Source: Amoeboaphelidium protococcarum X5 (taxonomy: Eukaryota > Fungi > Aphelidiomycota). Taken from it: a DNA stretch of 64,000 nt. The notes beneath the pieces were generated by a model that was not told the DNA's origin, searched no databases, and worked only from the letters and a program-made list of their open reading frames with translations. Where the stretch lies: contig JALDTO010000237.1 in NCBI GenBank assembly GCA_023515725.1, positions 186,001 through 250,000 on the forward strand. The letters run 5' to 3'. The translations under genes were made by a program, and so were the position numbers. The number at the start of each line of letters is the position of its first letter. Within the stretch, counting starts at the first letter, position 1. This document shows, piece by piece, positions 6,780-60,301 of this stretch.

Positions 6780-9017
6780 TCATATGGACATCACGAACTC
6801 CTTGTATAGTGTCTAATCCGCTTAGTTCGCAGTAACCAATTTCACTTCTTCCTTAGAAAAACTTCGAGACATAACATTATATGATCCAACATTATCCCGA
6901 TATGCACGAAAATCACCCAACATGAAGTACTCATCAGCACCAAGACAGTTATGTAGCACATTCTGAAACGGATGTTGTTTCGACGTAAACTCCTCCGTTG
7001 TCACGAGCACGTACTTTCCAGATCTAAATATATTAGCTTATGCAATTGCAATAAGTTTCATACGACACTTGTAATGGCTAAACGCCAATAGAGTCTTCCG
7101 CGTATTTTTATGGAGAATATGCCCAGAATTTTATTAACCACGCGAGTGTGTTACCAGTACATCGGCCGTATCACTTAGAACGGGAGGTAGATTCAAACGC
7201 TCTCTCCGTTTCTTCACCATCTTAATAGTCAGAAACTCGGGAAGAATGATTAGATCATAATGCCGCATCAAAAAGTTGTCAATTCGGTTATGCAAATTCG
7301 ATACATATGCAGAGAATTTGGTGTAAGCACGACTAATGCCAATATCAGTGGGAACAACATTATTCTTTGATTACTTCCATGTGTGCCATAATTCTTTCTT
7401 CTACGCTTTAAACTCCTCCAGACTCAATTGTCCATTCTGTAAAGCAGCTGCGCGATTATCCATCTAATCTTTCAGAGACTATGCATTGGAAATCTATTCA
7501 CTCTTATTCTTATAAAGCTACTTGAAATCAGGCGCAATCGCAAAGAATGACCTGCGATCCAAATCGAAGACGGTCATGCTCACTCTAACACCTGGATCCA
7601 CCGAGCAAGTGTTTCCAGTTTAACGGCAACGCGCATCACGGCGGCTTATAAATGATCTAGCACCTTCAAGATTCTCATCTGCATTATTCATATCTTGCAG
7701 TTGCTAGTAATACCAATCAGTGAATGGACCTTATATACAGGAGGCATCATACGAAACAATCACAAAGAACTTTTTTCTTCTTTTCACGAGCTTGAACTCT
7801 CTTCCTCTGCCATAGCCAAACTTGATGAAACGGGGCCAGTAGTCAATCTTGCCAGGCTCTTAGAATAGAGGATCTTTGGCATACAGTTTCCCAAAGCTCT
7901 TGAGGAATGAAGGCAGTAGGCGGACGCGATTGCTATCTGGATCTACACGGGCATCTTACGCTTGAAACTGGAGCATCTAAAACTAATCATCATCTCTATT
8001 TGGCATAAAGTTGTAGTCTTTGATATCACCCTTTGTATACTTCTCATGAGCCGCATAGTAATACGTGCGAGTCGCATTAATAATCTCATCTTGCACTGTA
8101 GATGGCATTCGCATCCAACGCAATCTTGGGTCGTCATCAGGCACGCGGCACTTTTTGGCTTTGACTTAACTTAGCGCAACATGGTTCCTTAGCGCTTGTA
8201 TTGACACCTTTTCTCCTTAATCTCTGGAATCATTCAAAATGTTAATGATGAAATTGGCCATTTGAAACTTGAGATCCAGCCATTCATTGAATTTGTGTAT
8301 GAACTTCTTATCAGGGAATATACGAATATTAATCGAGCGTATCTGATCATACTGATTCAGTTCGGCAATCTCTCGCCGATTTTTCATCTTGCCGATTTTT
8401 GGTTTCATGTTTTCCAACGCCACTAGAGATTATTCCGAAAGCTGTAGCACTTTCTTCTTCTTCTTCTTCTTCTTCTTCAAACTCTTAGATGACGACTATT
8501 ACTGCTTAGATTTCCATTTAGCCATTAGAGAGTCTGTATCTGATGCAATCTACTGATTCCGCATTTTGGATTCAATGATATTCTCAATTTAATGCTGCAC
8601 CTGACTAAAACTTTACTTCTCCTGGCTCTCACTTACGTTTTGTCCCATGTCTTTACGATTTAAATTAGGATTGAACTTTGCTGTTAAGGAGTGTTCTGTT
8701 TATTAAGATTACGGTATTTGCCAGTCCTTGTCAGTGCATTTTAACAACAGTCGTTAATTGAACGCGTCTGTGTTGCCATTCCAAACATAATGTCCAAACC
8801 ATTCAGATTTAGTATTATACCAAAGGGCAAATACTGGAGCAAATGCGGCAAATGATGATGCGCCAAGTTCTTTGACTATCCGAATATCAACTTCATTGAT
8901 CACCTTAGCACACACGGAGAGAAATCCGGGAATATCTTGATGATATGCTTAAGTTTTGAAATCTTCTAGTGCTGTCTTTGCAGCCGCAGATAATTCACGT
9001 TTTTGGCTTGGCTACAT
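6780..9017 (-). CDS. Fanzor2 / TnpB-family RNA-guided endonuclease, 745 aa
   Basis: Single table-6 ORF: RSINIRIFPDKK..EW..MANFII (OrfB HTH/WED start), RuvC-I CSVDPG (D474), RuvC-II YDLIILPEF then TRKTLLAFSHYKCRMKL, VTTEEFTSK (E675), RuvC-III YRDNVGSYNV (D708). Confidence 0.88.
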
Positions 9018-29532: not shown

Positions 29533-31575
29533 TCAATCATATCGCTTCACCTTCTGCTTCTTGTCTCTATTCCCTTAATCTTTACCAAGACTCTTTCCTG
29601 ATGACGCTGACTTGTTTCCACCTCTTTAACCTGATTAATTATTACTATTCTTGTTGACAAATAACTTTGCCGGTCTGGCTGCAATCTCGTCAGCGTGCTT
29701 GATCAAATTCTCTCCCTTCTTCAACTACATTTCTGCAATCTTGATCTACTTTTCCTATTTCTCTTCCGTCAAAACCGTTGATATCTTCGCCTCCAGCGAT
29801 TAAATCTACTCGCGATACTTTTTGACAACTTCTGAAGGTAATACGCGCTACTTGGCCACCTGGCCAGGCTTCAAATTCTTCAATACTGTCTTGACCATTT
29901 TACGCTCTCTCTCACCGACAAGAGTGACAGACTTACCATGCTTGTTGTTACGAGCAGTACGTCCAACTCTGTGCACGTAACGCTCATAGGAAGGTGGCAT
30001 CTGTAGATTGATTACCACCTCTATGCCAGCAATATCAAGACCACGCGATGCAATATCCGTACAAAGTAAGAAATCCACTTTACTATCCCTGAAGCGTTCA
30101 AGCGACTCAATTCTCTGCATCTGGGATAGATTTCCATGCAATTCTGTAGCTTTAAGGCCAGACAGACCAAAGATGACTTTCATACGGTGACACAGTATTT
30201 TGGATGGCATAAAAACAATCACACGCTTCCTATACGTTCTCTGACAAAGTGCTAACAGGATAGCTTCTCTCTGAGGTAGAGTAGCATGGTCAACAGCGCC
30301 ACTACTTGTCCCCGATTCGCCACCATCTCCAACGTCACTAACACTCTTACCACCGACATTTCTAATTCTGATAAACTCTTGCACCAGATTAGATGCAACA
30401 GCATTCACCGAGTCAATAAAGAGTCTGACTGGACGATGCAGAGAAAGTTGAACCAACTGGTCAACATTATCCGTCATGGTGGCACTGAAAAGCAGTCTCT
30501 AACAATTGCGCGGGCACTACTTTATAATCTCCGTCAACTCAGCTTGGAAACCTTCTTCCAGCATTCGATCAGCTTCATCCATCACTAAAATGTCAACCAT
30601 ATCTAATTCAAAAGATGCTGAATTCATCAAATGATCAACTAATCTACCTGGAGTTGCAAATACAATATCCGGTCGCTTTTTCAGCTCCACTTCCTACTAT
30701 TAACTGGAGGTACCACCAACACATAGAGAAATGGTTATATCCGTATACTTGGCCAACTTCACAGCGACAGAGTAACATTAGGCGGCAAGTTCACGCGTCG
30801 GAGTCAAAATCAGCACTCTCGTGGCAGCAGTACTGTAGCCATGACTTTTTGGCTTGTACAACAGTCGCTCCAATATAGGCAATAAGAATGCCGCACTCTT
30901 ACCGCTACCAGTCTATGCGGCACCACAAATATCTCTGCCCATAAGTGCAAGTGGAATCGCCATAGCCTAGATCTTAGTTGGTTTGTTGAATCCCAGATCG
31001 GCCAGTCCTTTCAACAGAGGACGTGATAGATTCATCTCTGTAAAAGTTTACGCGTAATTCTATTCATCATCTCCACCAGCGTCGCTCATAATATCTGGCT
31101 GTTCAAAGTACTCTGCCACCTTTTTATCAACCACTTTATCTTGCAATTTACTAAATTTACCTTCTATCGTATCTTAATGTCTAAATGCACTGTCGATGTC
31201 CTCGCCATCTTCATCACTGCCGCTATTATCTCCATCTTCAGAATCAGAGTCATCAACTGCGGCATCACCGTCTTAATCGGACGCGTCGTCAACATCGCTT
31301 AATTACCTGGCAATAGTCTCGTCAATATCGACCTCAGTGTACTTCCTCTTGATATGTTCCTTCACGGTTCCAAAGTCCCAACTGCTCTTTCCGGCTTAAG
31401 AGAGTCCCCTCATCTTGCCGAGCATATCACTATCATTCATAGTGAACGAGAAATTAGGATTGATCTCTTGAGGCTTATTCTCTTGTTCCACTTCTTGCTA
31501 CTCAGTATCGCTATGCAAATCAGTTGAGGTATGAGGTGTATCCTCAGCATCGCTTATTGTCATAATCAGATCCAT
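29533..31575 (-). CDS. DRS1: DEAD-box RNA helicase DRS1/DDX27
   Basis: [62 protein letters not shown]. Confidence 0.93.
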
Positions 31576-31794: not shown

Positions 31795-32607
31795 TCAGTC
31801 AGCGCGCTTTTTAGGATCCATTTTTCTTTTGGGTGCTGTGATAGACTTTTTGGCGCTTTATTTCAGAGGGCGTGGAGCCGGTGGCGAAGGTGTCTTTGGC
31901 GCTTTGCTCGGTTAAGCAGGTGCAGGTTGAGCACTAGTAGCGCCATGCATTCTTCGGCTTTTTCGCAGCTCATCATGCTAATTGGGACCAGTGCCTTTAT
32001 ACATTGGGCCCTTCCCTTTGTCTTTTGCAGGATCGTATGGAGTAGGATTTCGAGACGTGGAAGAGGCGGAAGAGGTGCCAGATGATGAGGCACCAGATGA
32101 GGATGCACCAGAAGAGGAGCCACTACTACCACCACTTGTTGGCTATGTAACTGGAGTAGTAGGATAGCCGGGAGCTGGCTTCACAGTACCGGCAGGTACA
32201 CCTCGGGCAATGCCTTTGTTATGGTCCAACTCTTCCAGCCATGCTACAGAGTCCTCCCCAAATGCTATATCAGCAATTTTCTGATATTGGCCCATACTCA
32301 ATGGCACTTGATCCACAAAGTCACCTTTATGGTTAAAAATAGCGCCATCCTCGTACACAGTGTACTATTTTTTACCCTTGCCTACTTTAGTAGAACGCAC
32401 CGGTTCACCAGTTGCTGGAGGAAGTGGTGCCCACGGCTGTTATGAATATGTTATCTCGTATGGCTTTGAATTTGAACTTCCTCCTTGAGCTGTATTACCA
32501 GATTATCCTTACTGACCAGAAGCAGCAGCATTACTTTGAGGTTACTACTACCTTTGTTGTTACCGTTACTGTTGTCGCTATTACTGTTATTGAAACTTTT
32601 GATCCAT
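31795..32607 (-). CDS. Orphan low-complexity protein (polyQ, Gly/Ser/Pro-rich, basic tail) at the virus junction
   Basis: 270-aa table-6 ORF MDQKFQQQQQRQQQ...KRKMDPKKRAD; its ATG lies in the last 4 nt of the viral repeat arm. Confidence 0.55.
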
Positions 32608-33309
32608 TCATTGGGGTGCAAGTTGGAGGTTATTATTATTTCCTCGGCGTTTAAGGGATAACCTGCACCTTTTGTTTCTACACAGCATTTGTACTTGTCA
32701 CACCATTTGAGCAGATGGGATACTCCAATTTCTCCTCTGAATTCATCGATTAATACTTTCTTTTCCCCTTTGTATCCATCCCAGAACTTTGTAGTAGGGA
32801 GTTTATCATAGTATTCATCTCCCAGCTACTAAACTGCTCCAAAGGTTTTACCAGATCCAGAGACTCCATAGAAAACTTTTACTGAAATGTTTGGTCTTGG
32901 TCTGGCTACCATGTGGTCCATACCTATACGTCTTATCTAGTTATAACATCTAATTCTTATGTCAGCAGGAATTTAATCTACCTCTCCTTCAACGGCCTGC
33001 TGCCAGACTTAGTTCCAGTCCTCTTATCTATTTCTCTAGACAGGTCTTTCTCCCAGTTCAAACTATGTGCCAGGTACTCTAGTGTCCTCCTTCCATACAT
33101 AGTCATCTGCAGCCTAGCTTCTACTTTGTTCCAGGTGGCTCTAGTTTGGAAAGAAACTCTTAGCCTTGGTCAGGGTTACCTTTTTGTTAAACTAGGCCAT
33201 AATTTACCAATGATGGTAGCCACCCTCACCAACTTCTTGTTGACCCTTCAGATAGACTAGTTCATCTCTAATAGCGGGCACATACTCAGCAGCGAACGGA
33301 ATAGTCAGC
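32604..33309 (-). pseudogene. rep: Partial inverted Rep copy (left arm of inverted repeat)
   Basis: Reverse complement of 33444-34149; spans LTIP to PNEW; lacks the start codon and Arg finger. Confidence 0.9.
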
Positions 33310-34149
33310 CGAAATAGGAAGGTGCGCGTGAATATTGTCCTTAGCAACCGAGCAGCATAAAAGGGGAAGGACGGTGAGCTCTCTTTTCTTCCTCGTAACG
33401 ATCAAAAAATAAAAATGCCTTCCCGCTAAGCTCGCTATTATCTGCTGACTATTCCGTTCGCTGCTGAGTATGTGCCCGCTATTAGAGATGAACTAGTCTA
33501 TCTGAAGGGTCAACAAGAAGTTGGTGAGGGTGGCTACCATCATTGGTAAATTATGGCCTAGTTTAACAAAAAGGTAACCCTGACCAAGGCTAAGAGTTTC
33601 TTTCCAAACTAGAGCCACCTGGAACAAAGTAGAAGCTAGGCTGCAGATGACTATGTATGGAAGGAGGACACTAGAGTACCTGGCACATAGTTTGAACTGG
33701 GAGAAAGACCTGTCTAGAGAAATAGATAAGAGGACTGGAACTAAGTCTGGCAGCAGGCCGTTGAAGGAGAGGTAGATTAAATTCCTGCTGACATAAGAAT
33801 TAGATGTTATAACTAGATAAGACGTATAGGTATGGACCACATGGTAGCCAGACCAAGACCAAACATTTCAGTAAAAGTTTTCTATGGAGTCTCTGGATCT
33901 GGTAAAACCTTTGGAGCAGTTTAGTAGCTGGGAGATGAATACTATGATAAACTCCCTACTACAAAGTTCTGGGATGGATACAAAGGGGAAAAGAAAGTAT
34001 TAATCGATGAATTCAGAGGAGAAATTGGAGTATCCCATCTGCTCAAATGGTGTGACAAGTACAAATGCTGTGTAGAAACAAAAGGTGCAGGTTATCCCTT
34101 AAACGCCGAGGAAATAATAATAACCTCCAACTTGCACCCCAATGAATGG
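32604..34149. repeat. 706-bp inverted repeat with 134-bp spacer (33310-33443)
   Basis: Arm coordinates sum to 66753; track ORFs 32913-33260(+) and 33493-33840(-) translate identically; no mismatch found in spot checks. Confidence 0.95.
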
Positions 34150-34302
34150 TGGCCGGCCTTGGATGAGACAACTAAAGCTGCATTCCTAAGAAGAGTAACC
34201 GTAGTTCATTATGACAGACCATACGAACGAATGGTTGAACGAATGGCTGCAGTAGCCGGATTCGATGGAGTTGACGAAGATGGCCGACCAGTGCTCATGT
34301 GA
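33415..34302 (+). CDS. rep: CRESS-DNA virus replication-associated protein (HUH endonuclease + SF3 helicase), 295 aa
   Basis: Motif I LLTIP, II YHHWQ, III DYVWKEDT, Walker A GVSGSGKT, FWDGY, Walker B LIDEF, motif C ITSN, Arg finger FLRRV. Confidence 0.95.
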
Positions 34303-34562
34303 ATAATATGTATGTATGAACTGCTTAAAATGGAAGGGTTGACTGGGTCCCCCAGACTGGAAATAATAATGATCAGGTGTAAGGAATAAATTTATGTTTT
34401 GTGCGCTCAACGGGGCCCCTGCACCCCGGTTTCGCTTGTGTCCACTTACGCCTTTTTAGTGCCTACGCCTCGATCCCTCGGTCCGGCACATAAAAATGGC
34501 TACGCTGCCGGTATAAAAAAGATAATTAAAAAAAACGTATTTATAAATACGGTTATCACAAC
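34303..34562. other. Viral rep/cap 3' intergenic region with stem-loops
   Basis: CTGGG-tcc-CCCAG (34343-34355), GGGGCCCCTGCACCCCG (about 34412-34428), CCGGCA..TGCCGG (about 34483-34511), palindrome CGTATTTATAAATACG (34536-34551). Confidence 0.6.
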
Positions 34563-35081
34563 TCAACAATTACAATCTGAATCTCCAAGAACCTAAATAT
34601 CAGCCGTCGGATTTATAGTAAGATTATCAAAATCCTCTTAAGTGGGCAAAATAGTACAAGTTCCAATACTCTTTTCCTTGACTAACTATTCACCGCTGTT
34701 AGTAACGGTTTACCAAATAATATTATCACCATCTTGAACCATAGCTTCAATATTACGAGTAGCGTAATTTATAGGCTAATTACTAATCATTGGTCTAAAT
34801 TTATATGTTTTGTGACCAACAAATTTAACACAAACAGGAGCGCTTGTAATACGACGAAATATAATGGGAGGATCACGAATATTTGCTGTTACAGGAAATG
34901 AACGAATAATGGGCATGAAAGTATGAGTATACGGAGAAGCATACTCTGTACTCCACCTATCTGCAGCAACAACCTTGTTATAATTGATTTTAAAAATATG
35001 CTTATAGTTACCACCACCAGACATATTAATACGATGCACTTTAATAATTTTCCAATGTTTGTTAAATTCAGCAGACGATTA
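34563..35081 (-). pseudogene. cap: 5'-truncated CRESS-virus capsid (C-terminal 172 codons)
   Basis: SAEFNKHWKIIKVHRINMSGGGNYKHIFKINYNK resembles the CRESS capsid F..WK..K......G....H pattern; convergent with Rep; upstream in-frame TGA, no N-terminal Arg-rich arm. Confidence 0.65.
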
Positions 35082-35262
35082 TCATGACTTTGGGACACAT
35101 ATATGATCATCTGACCAAATGCTCAGCCTCTGATTGGAAGAAAATCGTATGATCTGAACACAATGTAAAATGTACAGTATACAGTTACAAGTACACGATA
35201 TGGTGAGATATCACTTCACAGGAATAAACTCAAAGAAGACCACAAGTGCAAAACAAGAGAAT

Positions 35263-36312
35263 TCATTAAAGACTTTGTTCAAGCAAAATCATGAGCTCAT
35301 CCACATTAAAGTGCCGGTTAAACGCCTTAAGGAAGACTGAATTCTCTTGCACGTCCGCAGTCTTTTACTCCTTAGCTGTGGCGGGAGATGGTGTGGATTT
35401 CATAGAGAGTTGAGTATCAAAATTCAGCAATTTCTAAACCGGATCAATATCATTAGCTGTCCTACCACCCAAAATCTAAACTTTCTTGGCCGATTTAGGC
35501 TTCTTTTACTTTTTACTAGTACTTACACTGGGAGGATGAGAGGGACTAACGTAATCTGATTCAACACTTTTATTCTACTTCTACAAGGTGGCACTTCCCG
35601 CTTTGCTATTCTACTTGAGCCAGTCTTTCAGCTTTCCCATAAAGCGCTAGATCATAAAAAAGTTATTCACAAACTGCTTCGTCTAATGCCTGTATCCAGG
35701 TAAGTCTTTAAGCCAATGCCACTTAATATCACCAATCTCCTTTCGCGTCTATGGGCAAAATTATGTCGCCTCTGAGATGTTCTAAATGACAAACATCTTA
35801 TTACGCTACTCGCCACGCAGAACCAGCTCAATAAACTTGCCCTCCTCTATCCTATCGCGAATATCAAACCCAGTCTCTTCCATAACTTCTCTCACTGCAC
35901 AATCCACATCGCTCTCATTCTAGTTGATCTTACCCTTGGGAAATGTCCAATTGCCTCTCGATCCCCATCCCTTGACTAGGAGAACCTTATCGCTGGACTC
36001 ATTTAACAATATGGCACCACACACGGGAACATTCATCTTGTACGCAACGAACCGACTATAAATCTCTTCCACACTGGACTACTCTATAAATTCAATAAGC
36101 AGTGGACATCTTTTGAACATTTCACCAGCGAAAGATTTCAGTTTAAAATGGGGCAGATTAGGCTGTGACTCTCTGATGAAGTCTTCATAGAACCAGTGAG
36201 CTTATTCTATCTAAAAGCACACCTACTCAATCGTAGATATCTCGCTCTCCGGGACATTTATGATAAATCTCGACATGAGATCTTCAAATATTTCCTGCAA
36301 TTGTGTGGTCAT
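35263..36312 (-). CDS. DCP2: mRNA decapping enzyme Dcp2
   Basis: BoxA EDLMSRFIINVP..FQIEQAHWFYEDF; YKMNVPVCGAILLN; Nudix [27 protein letters not shown]. Confidence 0.95.
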
Positions 36313-36638
36313 ATTACTTATTTCACTTTTGTGATATCTATAAAAAATATAGAGGAGTGTCACTTAAAAGTCTTTCGTAGGAGGAAACTGAGAAGAGGAA
36401 AGCTTGAATGGAACGGCGAGTCAAGCTAAGAGACGTAAATCTGAATAGTCTTGAGCGTGTGATAGATCGCTTTGTTAAAGTGTATTATTGGAGGGCTCTA
36501 ATGTCATCTAAAGCTATTATCAATAAGGCCTCATAGTGGCATAAAGCAAAAGCGAGAAGGATTCAAGGCAAGATAATGAAAGTATCAAACTACGACAGAA
36601 AAATTAAAAGTGAGTGGGCATTACTATTCTGACTATTA

Positions 36639-37235
36639 TCACAGACGCTAGTGAATGAAACGCGTTTCCGTAGACTTTAACATTCTTGCTGAAGGATCCA
36701 GAGACGGAATGTCTTCGCACGCAAGCTCAAATACTGGATTATCTGGTGAAATTAATTACAGTAAATCGCTAAAACCAGGTTCCTCCAACTCACAATTGTA
36801 GTCGACATATCCATTCTTGAATGCGCCACAAGTTAAAGTCGCAGGACCACGCAAAAGCTCATCAAATATTGGTTGAAGATCTAATCCTAGCCCGCTGTCA
36901 GTATCGCACAATGACTTACCGGCGATGCAGTTACACTTCATCTTGTCACATCTGGAGCTGATGGTGGATTCTCCGGTGCTCTTACTACCATCTAAAGCCC
37001 CACAATCGCTCATATCGCAATAGAAAGACGCGTCATCTTTAATCAGAAAACGCATTTGGCATTACGACGTTGACTGCTTGCATTCAAAACTCAAGTATCC
37101 TTCTCCGTGAGCAATATGATTGAACTGCTCATTGACAATAAAGCAAGTTTTTGTTTAACCGCTAATCAAGTCTTGAGCTTGAATCTAGTTCAACGTGGAA
37201 AGCAAGCTAATTAGGCCCAAAATAAATCCCTTCAT
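36639..37235 (-). CDS. Secreted Cys-rich protein resembling the ADP1 ABC-transporter ectodomain, stand-alone
   Basis: Signal peptide MKGFILGLISLLSTLNQIQA; SFYCDMSDC..CDKMKCNCIAGKSLC..LDLQPIF..LRGPATLTC..CELEEPGFSDLL. Confidence 0.6.
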
Positions 37236-37514
37236 ATCAGTAAATAGTTTGATGATTGCAAAATATGCACACAAGATTAACGCAGATTGACAGTAAGAAA
37301 AGAAGAACGCAATACATTAATCAATGTCAGGGGGTACACGTAAGCCACCGAAGCGTTAAAGGGCAGAGTACGACGGTGTTTTATAGTGCACACATTAAAT
37401 TAAAAGCTCAATTAAGAGCGCAGTTTATTTCAATAAAGTAAAAATTGATACTTTTGCATTTATTTGTACATTTAGGTGTAAACGCAACATACAACTGACG
37501 TAAGGAAAAAGTGA

Positions 37515-39527
<2,013 letters not shown>

Positions 39528-57112: not shown

Positions 57113-60100
57113 ATGATGTTTAGTAGTATCACGAATAACTCGAAGCGAAGACGCACCGTGATAGTGCAAAGATATTTGTGGGTGTTGGTTATATTCGCGT
57201 TGTTGGCTCATGGTGCGTTGGCTCAGCAAGGTACCGCCACTCCGCCAGCTTAGTAGAAGCGAGATGATTAAGTTGCTAAAACCCCGGTTTAGGCGCCATA
57301 GCAATAAACTAGACAGGCTTAGGCTGGCGCATCTACCTCACCACAGTAAAGTGATCCACCTAAGAAAGAAGAAGATGTCGACTCTCCAGTGAAGGATGAA
57401 GTCAATCCGCCACCTAAAGATACTCCTACTCCGCCTATTAAAAATGAAAACACTCCATAGCCAGGTACACCTGCTGATGGACCTGGAAAAGGAGATGCTA
57501 CTCCGACTCCTCCAGCTAAAGCTCCTACTGGACCAGGTAAAGACGATGATCCTAAGAATCCGCCTGGACCTCCAAAAGAGAATGACACTGCCCCAACTCC
57601 TGCGCCTCCGACTACCCCAAATCCGCCTATAGATGGCAATCCTACTGATCCGAAGGCTCCTCCAGGCAATGGAGATGGCCCAGGCAAGAACCCACCACCT
57701 GGCGAGGGTCCAATTGGTCCTAATTAACCACCGCCACCTTAGTCACCCACTCCTGCTCCATAGCCTTCTCCACCAATGACTCCGTCTCCACCTCCATCTC
57801 CTCCGCCTGCAGAGACTGAGCCTGCTCCTCCTAGACCGCCATAGGGACCACCTCCAACTGTTCCTAATCCTGTACCTGGTACTCCGGCTCCTGTTGATCC
57901 TGTCATTCCTCCAACTCCTGCCCCGGTTCCTTAACCACCTGCTAATCCTGCACCTGGACCTCCTTCTAATCCCGCTCCAGTGCCTGGTCCTAATCCAGCT
58001 CCATAACCAGCACCAGTACCTGCTCCGAATCCTATTCCATAACCAGCCCCAGTACCTTTACCTAATCCCGCTCCTGTTCCGTAGCCACCTGTTGGGCCTC
58101 CTGTTGACACTCCATCTCCAACTGGACCCCCATAGGAGCCAGCGCCATAACCTCCAACTCCAGCTCCACAGCCTCCAACTCCAGCTCCACAGCCTCCAAC
58201 ACCTGCACCGCCTGTCGGTCCTCCACCCGTCGTTCTACCTCCTGTAGTTCCCCCACCTGTTGTTCTACCACCGGTAGTTTAACCTCCTGTTGATTTACCA
58301 CCTGTGGTTGCGCCTCCTATCCCAGTACCGCCTATTTCGGTGCCTCCAGTCGAAAATCCTGCTCCTTCTCCTCCTTAGCCATCACCCCCTGGAAACGGTG
58401 ATGGTAGACCGCCACCTGGCGCTGGTTAGCCTCCATCTGTGCCTTCTCCCGGTTCTCCTCCAACTACACCACCGCCAGTTGTTGATGGCCCTATTGTCCC
58501 TCTGCCACCTCCAGTAGCTCTGCCTCCTGTCGCCGTAGATCCTGTTGTGGTTCCACCTGTGAAGATTGAACCACCATCTAACCAAACTCCTCCATAAGGC
58601 CCTCCTTCGTAGACCCCGCCTGGCAGACCGGCCACTCCTCCAGCTCCCGCAGAAGATAATCCTTCAGACGGAGTTAGACCACCTGCCTTGCCATTGCCGC
58701 TGACTCCTGCGCCAATTATTGGTGGCGGCCCTGTTGTGCCACCACTAAGCAGTATTGGTAATCCTATGTCACCTGCTTCGCTTGAACCTCCCTCCTCTGG
58801 CTCGGCAAGACCTTCACCCCCTGCAGAGTAGCAGGTTACTAGTGCTTCACCTCCATCTAATTCATCTCCTCCACAAGCTTAAAAACAACCAGAGCCAGCA
58901 CCTCCTTCTCTGTCAGATCTTGTATCTCCACCAAAAAGGACTTCTCCATCGCCAAATGGTGACGGCTCCTTGCCTCCTTCGTCATAACAAGGGTCTTAGC
59001 AGTCTCCTAGTATGGATTCTCCAGCCAATCCTCCCGCTCCATCAATTCCTGCATCTCCTCCTAGTCTGGCAAGAAGTTTGGTCACCAATCCTGGTATTGT
59101 TAATGATTAGCCTTCAACTGTTAGTCAAGAATCTGCCAAGCCTGATCAAGGTGTTGTACAGCAATAGAAGCCAGGTGCGAGAAACACCGAACAATCTGTT
59201 AGTGAACAGACCGTTTTCATTAATCCACCTTCTAGTGGAGCAGGATAAAGGCTTCTCAACTTGCTGCCAAACACGGCTGGATACGATAAGAGTGCTCTTG
59301 ACAATCTTCCTTCTGGTCTGGCTATTATTATTGCCGCATTTCACATGCCTTGTGGAGAGATTTGCCAATCATCATCCAATCCAACGCGCAAGACCTTCAT
59401 TGAAAAGTTTAAGGCTGACGTTGTTAGTGCAATGAAAGCTGCTGGATACGGAGCATCTCAGGAGGACAAGATTTAAGTTTTGAACATTGTTGAAGTATTG
59501 TCCGAGACTGCTATTCAGTTCACATTGTGGCCACTGTCTGACTCGACTGATTCTATTACTCAGGCTAATGCATTCAAATCCCAGTTGGATGATGCGAATA
59601 GCGCGCTGAGAAATGGTTAAATAACCAAGGATTTGGATCCGTCTGTTTTCGGTGTTGATGTCATAAAATCTCTGACTAACGATGGAGCTGCACGTCTCAC
59701 TGACTAAAATTCTCGTAACTTTATCATTGCTGGCTCAGTGATCTTTAACTGCGCGTTACTGGTTGTCTTTGGATTTGCCGTGAAGAAATATCGCGAGCGT
59801 ATTCAACAAGATCGAGTGCGTAAAGCTGAGGCTGCCAAGAATCAGAGTTGGTACTATAAGGATTTGCGTATTGATCCTAATCAGTAAGCAGAAATGGACT
59901 CTATCTTGGAGTTTGAAGCTGCTTTGAATTAGAACCAAGACGACAATGACGATGATGATGATAGCTTTATCAATGGTGTAAGTAGATTCAATTCTCCTCG
60001 AAGCTCAGCGTTCCATCAGAGACCGAAGACTATGAGTTTTGCACGCTCTGCTCTGTCCCGCTCTGTTATAACCAGTGATTTTGGTGAGAATAACACCAAT

Positions 60101-60301
60101 AACGACGAAGAGCTTGCTGATGGTGATAAGACTAGAAGAAATTCGCTGGAGACTTATTCTTTGACTGATGAAAGTTCTCTGGATTTCGCATCATTGCCTA
60201 ATATGGGATAATATTCGCTGTAATCGTCAGCTTTCACCTCAGTGACGACTTAGCCAAAGATGTCATATTAATTTGATGGCAACCAGTATGAAGAAGTTTG
60301 A
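57113..60301 (+). CDS. Proline-rich single-pass surface protein (signalling-mucin / Msb2-like architecture), 1062 aa
   Basis: Signal peptide; about 650 aa Pro-rich stalk; SEA/HMH-like domain ending FKSQLDDANSALRNGQITKDLDPS; TM FIIAGSVIFNCALLVVFGFAV followed by KKYR; cytoplasmic tail. Confidence 0.75.
58151..58210 (+). repeat. 21-bp coding tandem repeat (QPPTPAP) x about 3
   Basis: cctccaactccagctccacag repeated. Confidence 0.8.

Follow-up and report, generated by a model that had tools for sequence, protein, structure and literature searches.

The window that we analysed, a 64,000-nt stretch of a contig of the aphelid Amoeboaphelidium protococcarum, contains a gene for a CRESS-DNA virus replication protein (Rep) written in a code in which TAA and TAG (TAR) specify glutamine. 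The locus raises the question of whether this is a viral gene residing in a host chromosome and, if so, whether the virus already used the host's code before insertion and which organism it infected. Our best explanation, in which we have considerable confidence, is that the locus holds a 2.5-kb CRESS fragment, likely a recent arrival, in one aphelid haplotype, and that the fragment comes from a code-switched sub-clade that likely infects the aphelid.

The Rep ORF runs on the plus strand from an ATG at 33415 to a TGA at 34302 and encodes 295 aa when read with table 6; read with the standard code, the frame stays open for 124 aa at most. Both of its domains scored above the Pfam cut-off (PF02407 Viral_Rep, E 1e-12; PF00910 RNA_helicase, i.e. 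the SF3 helicase, E 6e-7) and it matched solved Reps in the PDB from E 1e-23. The motifs LLTIP, HHWQI, YVWKE, GVSGSGKT, LIDEF, ITSN and LRR were found and are conserved among relatives, in agreement with the sequence-only reading, which had described all HUH and SF3 motifs as intact; the protein has the HUH endonuclease fused to an SF3 helicase that characterizes Cressdnaviricota. Our recount of its Gln codons (five TAA, eight TAG, three CAA and two CAG) gave the same TAR share as before, 13 of 18, including the motif II Gln (Q45, a TAA codon), a position at which all 249 aligned relatives also have Gln. In the Rep of PCV2 the metal is bound by the motif II Gln and His (PMC8780604). Two further TAR-coded positions are conserved, Q5 being Gln in 86% of 230 relatives and Q92 in 84% of 255. 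Proteins identical to parts of this Rep carry the A. protococcarum label from their source. UAR has been stated to encode Gln in this species (PMC5304391), and the host genes on either side of the insertion also require this reading, with TAR shares similar to that of Rep: 24 of 40 Gln codons in the DEAD-box helicase gene on the left (29533..31575, minus strand; Pfam DEAD and Helicase_C under table 6) and 19 of 26 in the DCP2 gene on the right (35263..36312, minus strand; Pfam DCP2 and NUDIX).

The whole insertion spans 2,472 nt (32604..35075) and is present in one of two haplotypes; both of its ends were placed from the contigs of two samples (S1 and S2, described below) together with the end of an inverted arm. 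The left end is the end of that arm and corresponds to a loose end at 34149 in three of three S1 runs, and at the right end the contig of the other haplotype and the S2 contigs diverge from the window at 35076/35078. The arm belongs to a foldback copy that the sequence-only reading had missed: the left arm (32604..33312, minus strand) is an inverted copy of Rep codons 9-245 and is 100% complementary, over 709 nt, to the right arm within Rep (33441..34149, plus strand). The arms are separated by a 128-nt spacer or foldback joint (33313..33440), made up of the 102 nt upstream of Rep and Rep's first 26 nt, and beyond the arms imperfect pairing extends into this spacer. To the right of Rep, the viral intergenic region (34303..34562) lies between the convergent ends of Rep and the second viral gene, and its folding is not unusual (z -0.66). 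Along the minus strand, from the right end to the left, the order is therefore host DNA following DCP2, the second viral gene, the intergenic region, antisense Rep, the 102 nt upstream of Rep, the foldback copy and the remnant of a host gene. In the public annotation the left Rep copy is fused to the remainder of the host gene as a 398-aa protein (P0006), and the collapsed repeat arm stands on a separate 706-nt contig (P0004). No other Rep- or capsid-like stretch was found in the window.

The 102 nt kept upstream of Rep contain no NANTATTAC stem-loop, and the single occurrence of NANTATTAC in the element lies inside the capsid frame. The same sequence is present in 111 of 127 related contigs of at least 1.8 kb and, in most of the ambisense related contigs in which the upstream part is present, it lies 5-420 nt upstream of Rep. 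We read this as loss of the element's origin stem-loop by truncation. We examined a 9-mer 20 nt before the start of Rep as a possible divergent origin but discarded it, since it has no stem. A bacterial promoter scan returned nothing, and its model is not applicable here.

The second viral gene is represented by its 3' part (170 codons; 34563..35075, minus strand), the 5' part being absent. The fragment ends in TGA, has no internal TGA and uses TAR for five of its six Gln codons, bearing out the earlier remark that the capsid fragment also uses TAR. It had no Pfam match, but it matched a 394-position profile of the second-ORF family of related genomes at positions 254-356 (E 3e-10, against 5 bits for the best shuffled sequence). 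The relative P0197, which is full length (32% identity), gave a model with a pLDDT of 64.5, for which Foldseek returned STNV and geminivirus capsids at E of about 0.01 and probabilities of 0.97-1.0. These model-based matches suggest that the second gene likely encodes a capsid protein. Five close relatives of the fragment (49-87% identity) are themselves fragments of 56-158 aa; a further candidate from the capsid search, P0191, was dropped as a spurious repeat protein. Separately, in runs X3 and X4 we found a 34-nt match to the capsid fragment (34728-34761) in a contig with loose ends on both sides; this is probably chance and possibly a tiny second insertion.

We used seven DNA runs to determine whether the element is integrated: X1-X4 come from sample S1 and contain the stretch, and X5-X7 come from sample S2 and a different study. 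All seven were compared with stretches of the window that each include a single arm of the repeat. The S1 runs represent one sample of one study, possibly the source of the window itself, and their agreement is a measure of consistency rather than independent replication; the S1 evidence consists of assembled contigs, none of which covers the entire element. In each of the S1 runs X1, X3 and X4, a contig covering 34120-35425 joins the virus to DCP2 with 0 differences, and the left host junction (the loose end at 34149) and the foldback joint (an opposite-strand joint, 33313/33444) are both present. The per-contig depths in X1, X3 and X4 were 76, 67 and 100 for unique viral DNA, 73, 76 and 86 for the host contig of the same haplotype, and 148, 149 and 184 for the arm; in X2 the unique viral DNA had a depth of 80 versus 170 for the arm, i.e. 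the arm is at about twice the depth in all four S1 runs. No free virus was seen in the S1 runs, the viral depth being that of one copy, and the integrated form was the only form of the virus seen. The second S1 haplotype departs from the window at 35076 and therefore carries no insertion there; the two haplotypes differ by about 8-12% beside the element and by about 8-17%, depending on the piece, over 35076-37600. A. protococcarum is a hybrid, and two diverged haplotypes are expected of a hybrid genome. The site (35076/35078) is also empty in the S2 run X5. Virus-host junctions, an empty allele and chromosomal copy number were thus all found, in three of three runs of one sample and at the level of contigs, and the Rep-bearing element is an endogenous viral fragment, as the sequence-only reading had held. 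The insertion is likely recent, because the arms show 0 differences in 709 nt and both the other haplotype and X5 are empty at the site.

The element lies inside a host gene, of which the 3' remainder (about 270 codons; 31795..32603, minus strand) is left. This remnant is 83-84% identical to two full-length proteins, P0123 (84%) and P0124 (83%), which keep the first ~87 codons that are missing here (87 being the N-terminus of P0124); by eye, the missing N-terminus begins with a signal-peptide-like stretch. Because the N-terminal part of the gene is gone at the left junction, the insertion took the place of no less than about 290 nt of host sequence. The interrupted gene is intact on another contig. 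At 32605-32607 (minus strand) viral bases at the left junction supply an ATG that is in frame with the host remnant, giving a 270-aa ORF that lacks the signal-like start. Elsewhere in the window, a 745-aa ORF (6780-9017, minus strand, table 6) carries the motifs DPG ... E ... EEFTSK ... RDNVG, the spacing of which may resemble that of the RuvC domain of TnpB/Fanzor nucleases; the ORF had no match in Pfam, NCBIfam or PDB sequences and no clear terminal repeats, and its single-sequence model was poor (pLDDT 38). A proline-rich ORF of 1,062 aa (57113-60301, plus strand) has signal-like and transmembrane-like stretches by eye and no Pfam match.

The geometry of the junctions suggests a mechanism by which the insertion could have arisen, for which the host bases once present at the left junction were deduced from a protein alignment. 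Rolling-circle replication driven by Rep would have taken place in the nucleus, and the viral genes would have been translated by the TAR-reading tRNAs of the host. A broken chromosome end may then have been patched by copying viral DNA from within the capsid gene, through Rep, to a point 102 nt upstream; the new strand would have turned back on itself at a short inverted repeat with imperfect pairing, which could have primed this step, and copied 709 nt of its own sequence. This copied strand would finally have rejoined the host gene over two or three bases common to both, assuming that the host had a Trp codon there, as P0124 does. The integrated copy is probably replication-incompetent and a dead end: because it lacks the origin stem-loop and has only part of the capsid gene, it would not excise or make particles. 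Its Rep could still be expressed. It is conceivable, and in our view improbable, that the foldback acts as a heritable antiviral hairpin, i.e. that read-through from the DCP2 side would produce a 709-bp Rep dsRNA that silences a circulating, aphelid-specific, TAR-coded clade. If this were the case, the silenced clade would comprise the first aphelid-linked viruses in the literature searched.

The S2 runs share next to no sampled words with the window and are informative only at 80% likeness. At this level, X5, X6 and X7 each carry a Rep-like contig that differs at 45 positions over 300-305 nt (85% identical), and in X5 the likeness continues at 88% onward to 34278 and at 87% over the intergenic positions 34343-34493. 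The X5 element has depths of 61 and 67 versus 53-72 for single host contigs; no host junction was seen, and its integration is taken from this depth only. The S2 contigs leave the capsid part (34600-35028) and Rep before 33631 uncovered, which we did not take as absence. Substitutions between the two Reps were classed by hand, 39 of the 45 being listed and six near contig ends left out: under table 6 there were 26 synonymous and 13 non-synonymous changes (dN/dS 0.096, binomial p 7e-9), with a dN/dS of 0.052 for codons 98-162. Among these changes, TAR becomes CAR at Q101, Q105, Q110 and Q134, CAG changes to TAG at Q114, and TAG changes to TAA at Q92. Because synonymous swaps between TAR and CAR occur in both directions and dN/dS is about 0.10, we infer that the lineage evolved under TAR = Gln with purifying selection, and the earlier proposal that the virus was adapted to this code before insertion is borne out by the same comparison. 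In the S2 copy, three Glu residues (positions 70, 84 and 94) that 90-98% of relatives share are altered and there are three gaps, so part of the divergence between the two Reps is probably decay of the S2 copy.

We looked for the code among relatives of the element. Distant relatives with readable DNA were found at 164 loci, at about 53% identity or less, of which 146 aligned over at least 150 aa. No in-frame TAR was present in 141 of these 146, which together have 1,196 CAR versus 6 TAR codons; the conserved Gln of TQFE is CAR in 102 of 103, and the stop codon is TAA in 101 of 110 versus TGA in both viral genes here. The family members with readable DNA therefore use the standard code, unlike the TAR = Gln element. 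Five distant loci (L022, L050, L120, L121 and L020) have one or two in-frame TAA or TAG codons in Rep among CAR codons, which are likely errors or defective genomes rather than a code.

The close relatives (at least 58% identity) present a different picture. Thirteen of the 14 cluster representatives are fragments, mostly on contigs of 2.3-2.6 kb, and breaks are seen even in the relatives at 84-90% identity, of which two stand on contigs of 2,594 nt. The sole full-length close relative, P0005 (61% identity, 9 Gln, unbroken), lies just adjacent to the clade of fragments and outside it, and it was the only one returned by the near-length search, which would rank full-length close members first. 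Among distant proteins 115 of 127 were full length, a share inflated by the length windows of the search and by its basis in the best 120 of 570 matches. Four of seven premature C-ends (at three distinct sites) fall directly before a column in which the clade has Gln, such columns being 31 of 260; of the misses, two are on contigs of 1.0-1.2 kb and one (P0148) is a match of only 40 residues. P0148 stands on a 21,877-nt metagenome contig, on which the Rep match runs into unrelated sequence, and it could be a disrupted endogenous copy that belongs to a different eukaryote. The pattern of breaks suggests that the close environmental fragments have TAR codons, although contig ends or introns could explain some of them. 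A tree of the helicase half joins Rep with the fragments (FastTree support 0.93; 13 proteins among 246), as does an IQ-TREE helicase tree of a subset of 40 proteins (SH-aLRT/UFBoot 92.5/87 for Rep and the fragments, 10 proteins), in which P0005 and P0129 join next (89.5/80). DNA of the close clade was absent from the viral contigs searched (seven loci at 51% or less, then 0 matches in a second scan), from the metagenome scan (400 candidate stretches, which yielded 54 loci, none above 52%) and from the genome contigs (0). As regards the code of metagenomic relatives, the standard code thus holds for the distant ones (about 53% or less), and for the close ones, which are fragments, the use of TAR is inferred. 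Accordingly, the earlier suggestion that a whole LLTIP/HWQ/YVWK lineage belongs to the aphelid survives for the sub-clade and fails for the rest, in view of the 141 of 146 distant relatives that have no in-frame TAR. The parent virus likely belonged to a sub-clade in which TAR = Gln replaced the standard code, inside a large, unclassified and otherwise standard-code family.

The sequence-only reading had described this lineage as CRESSV2-like, a label that its motifs do not support. At all three motifs the element departs from the five CRESSV2 members given in Table 2 of PMC10821283, which have motif I of the FTxN(N/G/T) type, motif II of the H(L/F)Q(G/C) type and motif III YCxK, and CRESSV2 is not one supported lineage according to the main text of PMC9615429. 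The LTIP / HHWQ / AADxYVxK type instead matches the unclassified Cluster F of PMC10821283, one member of which has ILTIPV, HHWQI, AADKYVHK, VIIDEF and ITSN, compared with LLTIPF, HHWQI, ADDYVWK, VLIDEF and ITSN here. No host or altered code is given for Cluster F in the text consulted, and the match is by one member's motifs rather than a reference tree. Two Antarctic circular molecules described in PMC6893807 share the YVWK type. The new CRESS families as listed in PMC11532311 gave no way to place the element's family, and the accessions of three relatives were absent from one supplement text of PMC9615429.

Because the viral genes use the TAR = Gln code of the host, the virus likely infects the aphelid; the earlier view that the aphelid is its likely natural host is strengthened by these code-matched genes, the bridged junctions, the S2 element and the fragmented close clade. 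The code alone cannot name the host, as TAR = Gln is also found in ciliates and other groups. A virus of another such organism, e.g. a ciliate in the same waters, might have had its DNA caught by chance by the phagotrophic aphelid, a reading that is consistent with the occurrence of the code in several lineages, with the table-6 cruciviruses tied to ciliate-like codes (in the text of PMC7468197), and with the one-copy depth and the lack of free virus in the runs. We consider it unlikely, since two distinct related elements (85-88%) occur at different sites in two samples from two studies under the same species label, and infection would account for this more readily than several chance captures from a single narrow lineage.

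Two further explanations were weighed. In the first, a standard-code virus was inserted long ago, inherited, recoded to TAR in the host and retained as a domesticated Rep. In its favour, the TAR share of Rep (13/18) lies near that of the host, a dN/dS of 0.10 could equally reflect selection on a host gene, and the wider family uses the standard code. This old insertion is nevertheless very unlikely: the 709-nt arms are identical, the other haplotype and X5 are empty at the site, the relatives at 84-90% are also broken (two on 2,594-nt contigs), and the capsid fragment too uses TAR without an internal TGA. Still less probable, in fact the least probable of the explanations considered, is that a contaminating virus gave rise, through an error of assembly or amplification, to the element or to its inverted repeat. 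Chimeras made by phi29 typically take the form of perfect inverted duplications around a short spacer, and all of the supporting runs are from one sample. However, the same three joints are present in three of three runs, the viral depth is that of one haplotype with the arm counted twice in four of four, and the host gene interrupted here is whole on another contig. The preferred reading remains a likely recent insertion from a code-switched virus that likely infects the aphelid.

To our knowledge, the host is not known for most CRESS-DNA viruses. The nearest precedent for the element is BdDV-1 of the chytrid Batrachochytrium dendrobatidis (10.1101/2023.03.16.532857), which, as described in that preprint, shares with it nuclear integration of a CRESS virus, a zoosporic host of the fungal lineage, presence in some strains or samples only and duplicated Rep-like pieces at the locus. 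BdDV-1 is placed in Circoviridae, keeps both Cap and Rep, is expressed and sits at one subtelomeric locus among the positive strains tested, whereas the aphelid element differs in its motifs, retains a truncated capsid gene, contains an inverted foldback, sits within a host gene and uses TAR = Gln. The cruciviruses that need the ciliate code (PMC7468197) are likewise CRESS genomes with UAA and UAG as Gln; they have a tombusvirus-like capsid and their host was guessed, in the text available, as SAR protists, whereas here the genes lie in the chromosome of a non-SAR host. The assignment of Kirkoviridae/CRESSV1 to protists (PMC9615429) follows the same logic, in that an endogenous element names the host, which in that case is a gut protist. 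The words 'aphelid' and 'genetic code' are absent from the main text of that paper, and 'Amoeboaphelidium' from one file of its supplement. The literature searched held no report of endogenous viruses in aphelids or Amoeboaphelidium; subscription papers and preprint supplements lay outside it, and surveys there may list the element.

The clade has apparently been split into fragments by standard gene calling and is missing from the viral contig collection searched. The aphelid host is grown in culture, and the host link is therefore directly testable. Because the code switch is seen in an aphelid-linked lineage, TAR = Gln in a CRESS genome need not imply a ciliate host. Some table-6 CRESS genomes attributed to ciliates might infect relatives of fungi, as the sequence-only reading suggested. 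The element links one CRESS sub-clade, likely as its viruses' host group, to the aphelids, fungal relatives that parasitize algae, and suggests that this sub-clade took up its host's stop-codon reassignment within a family that otherwise uses the standard code.
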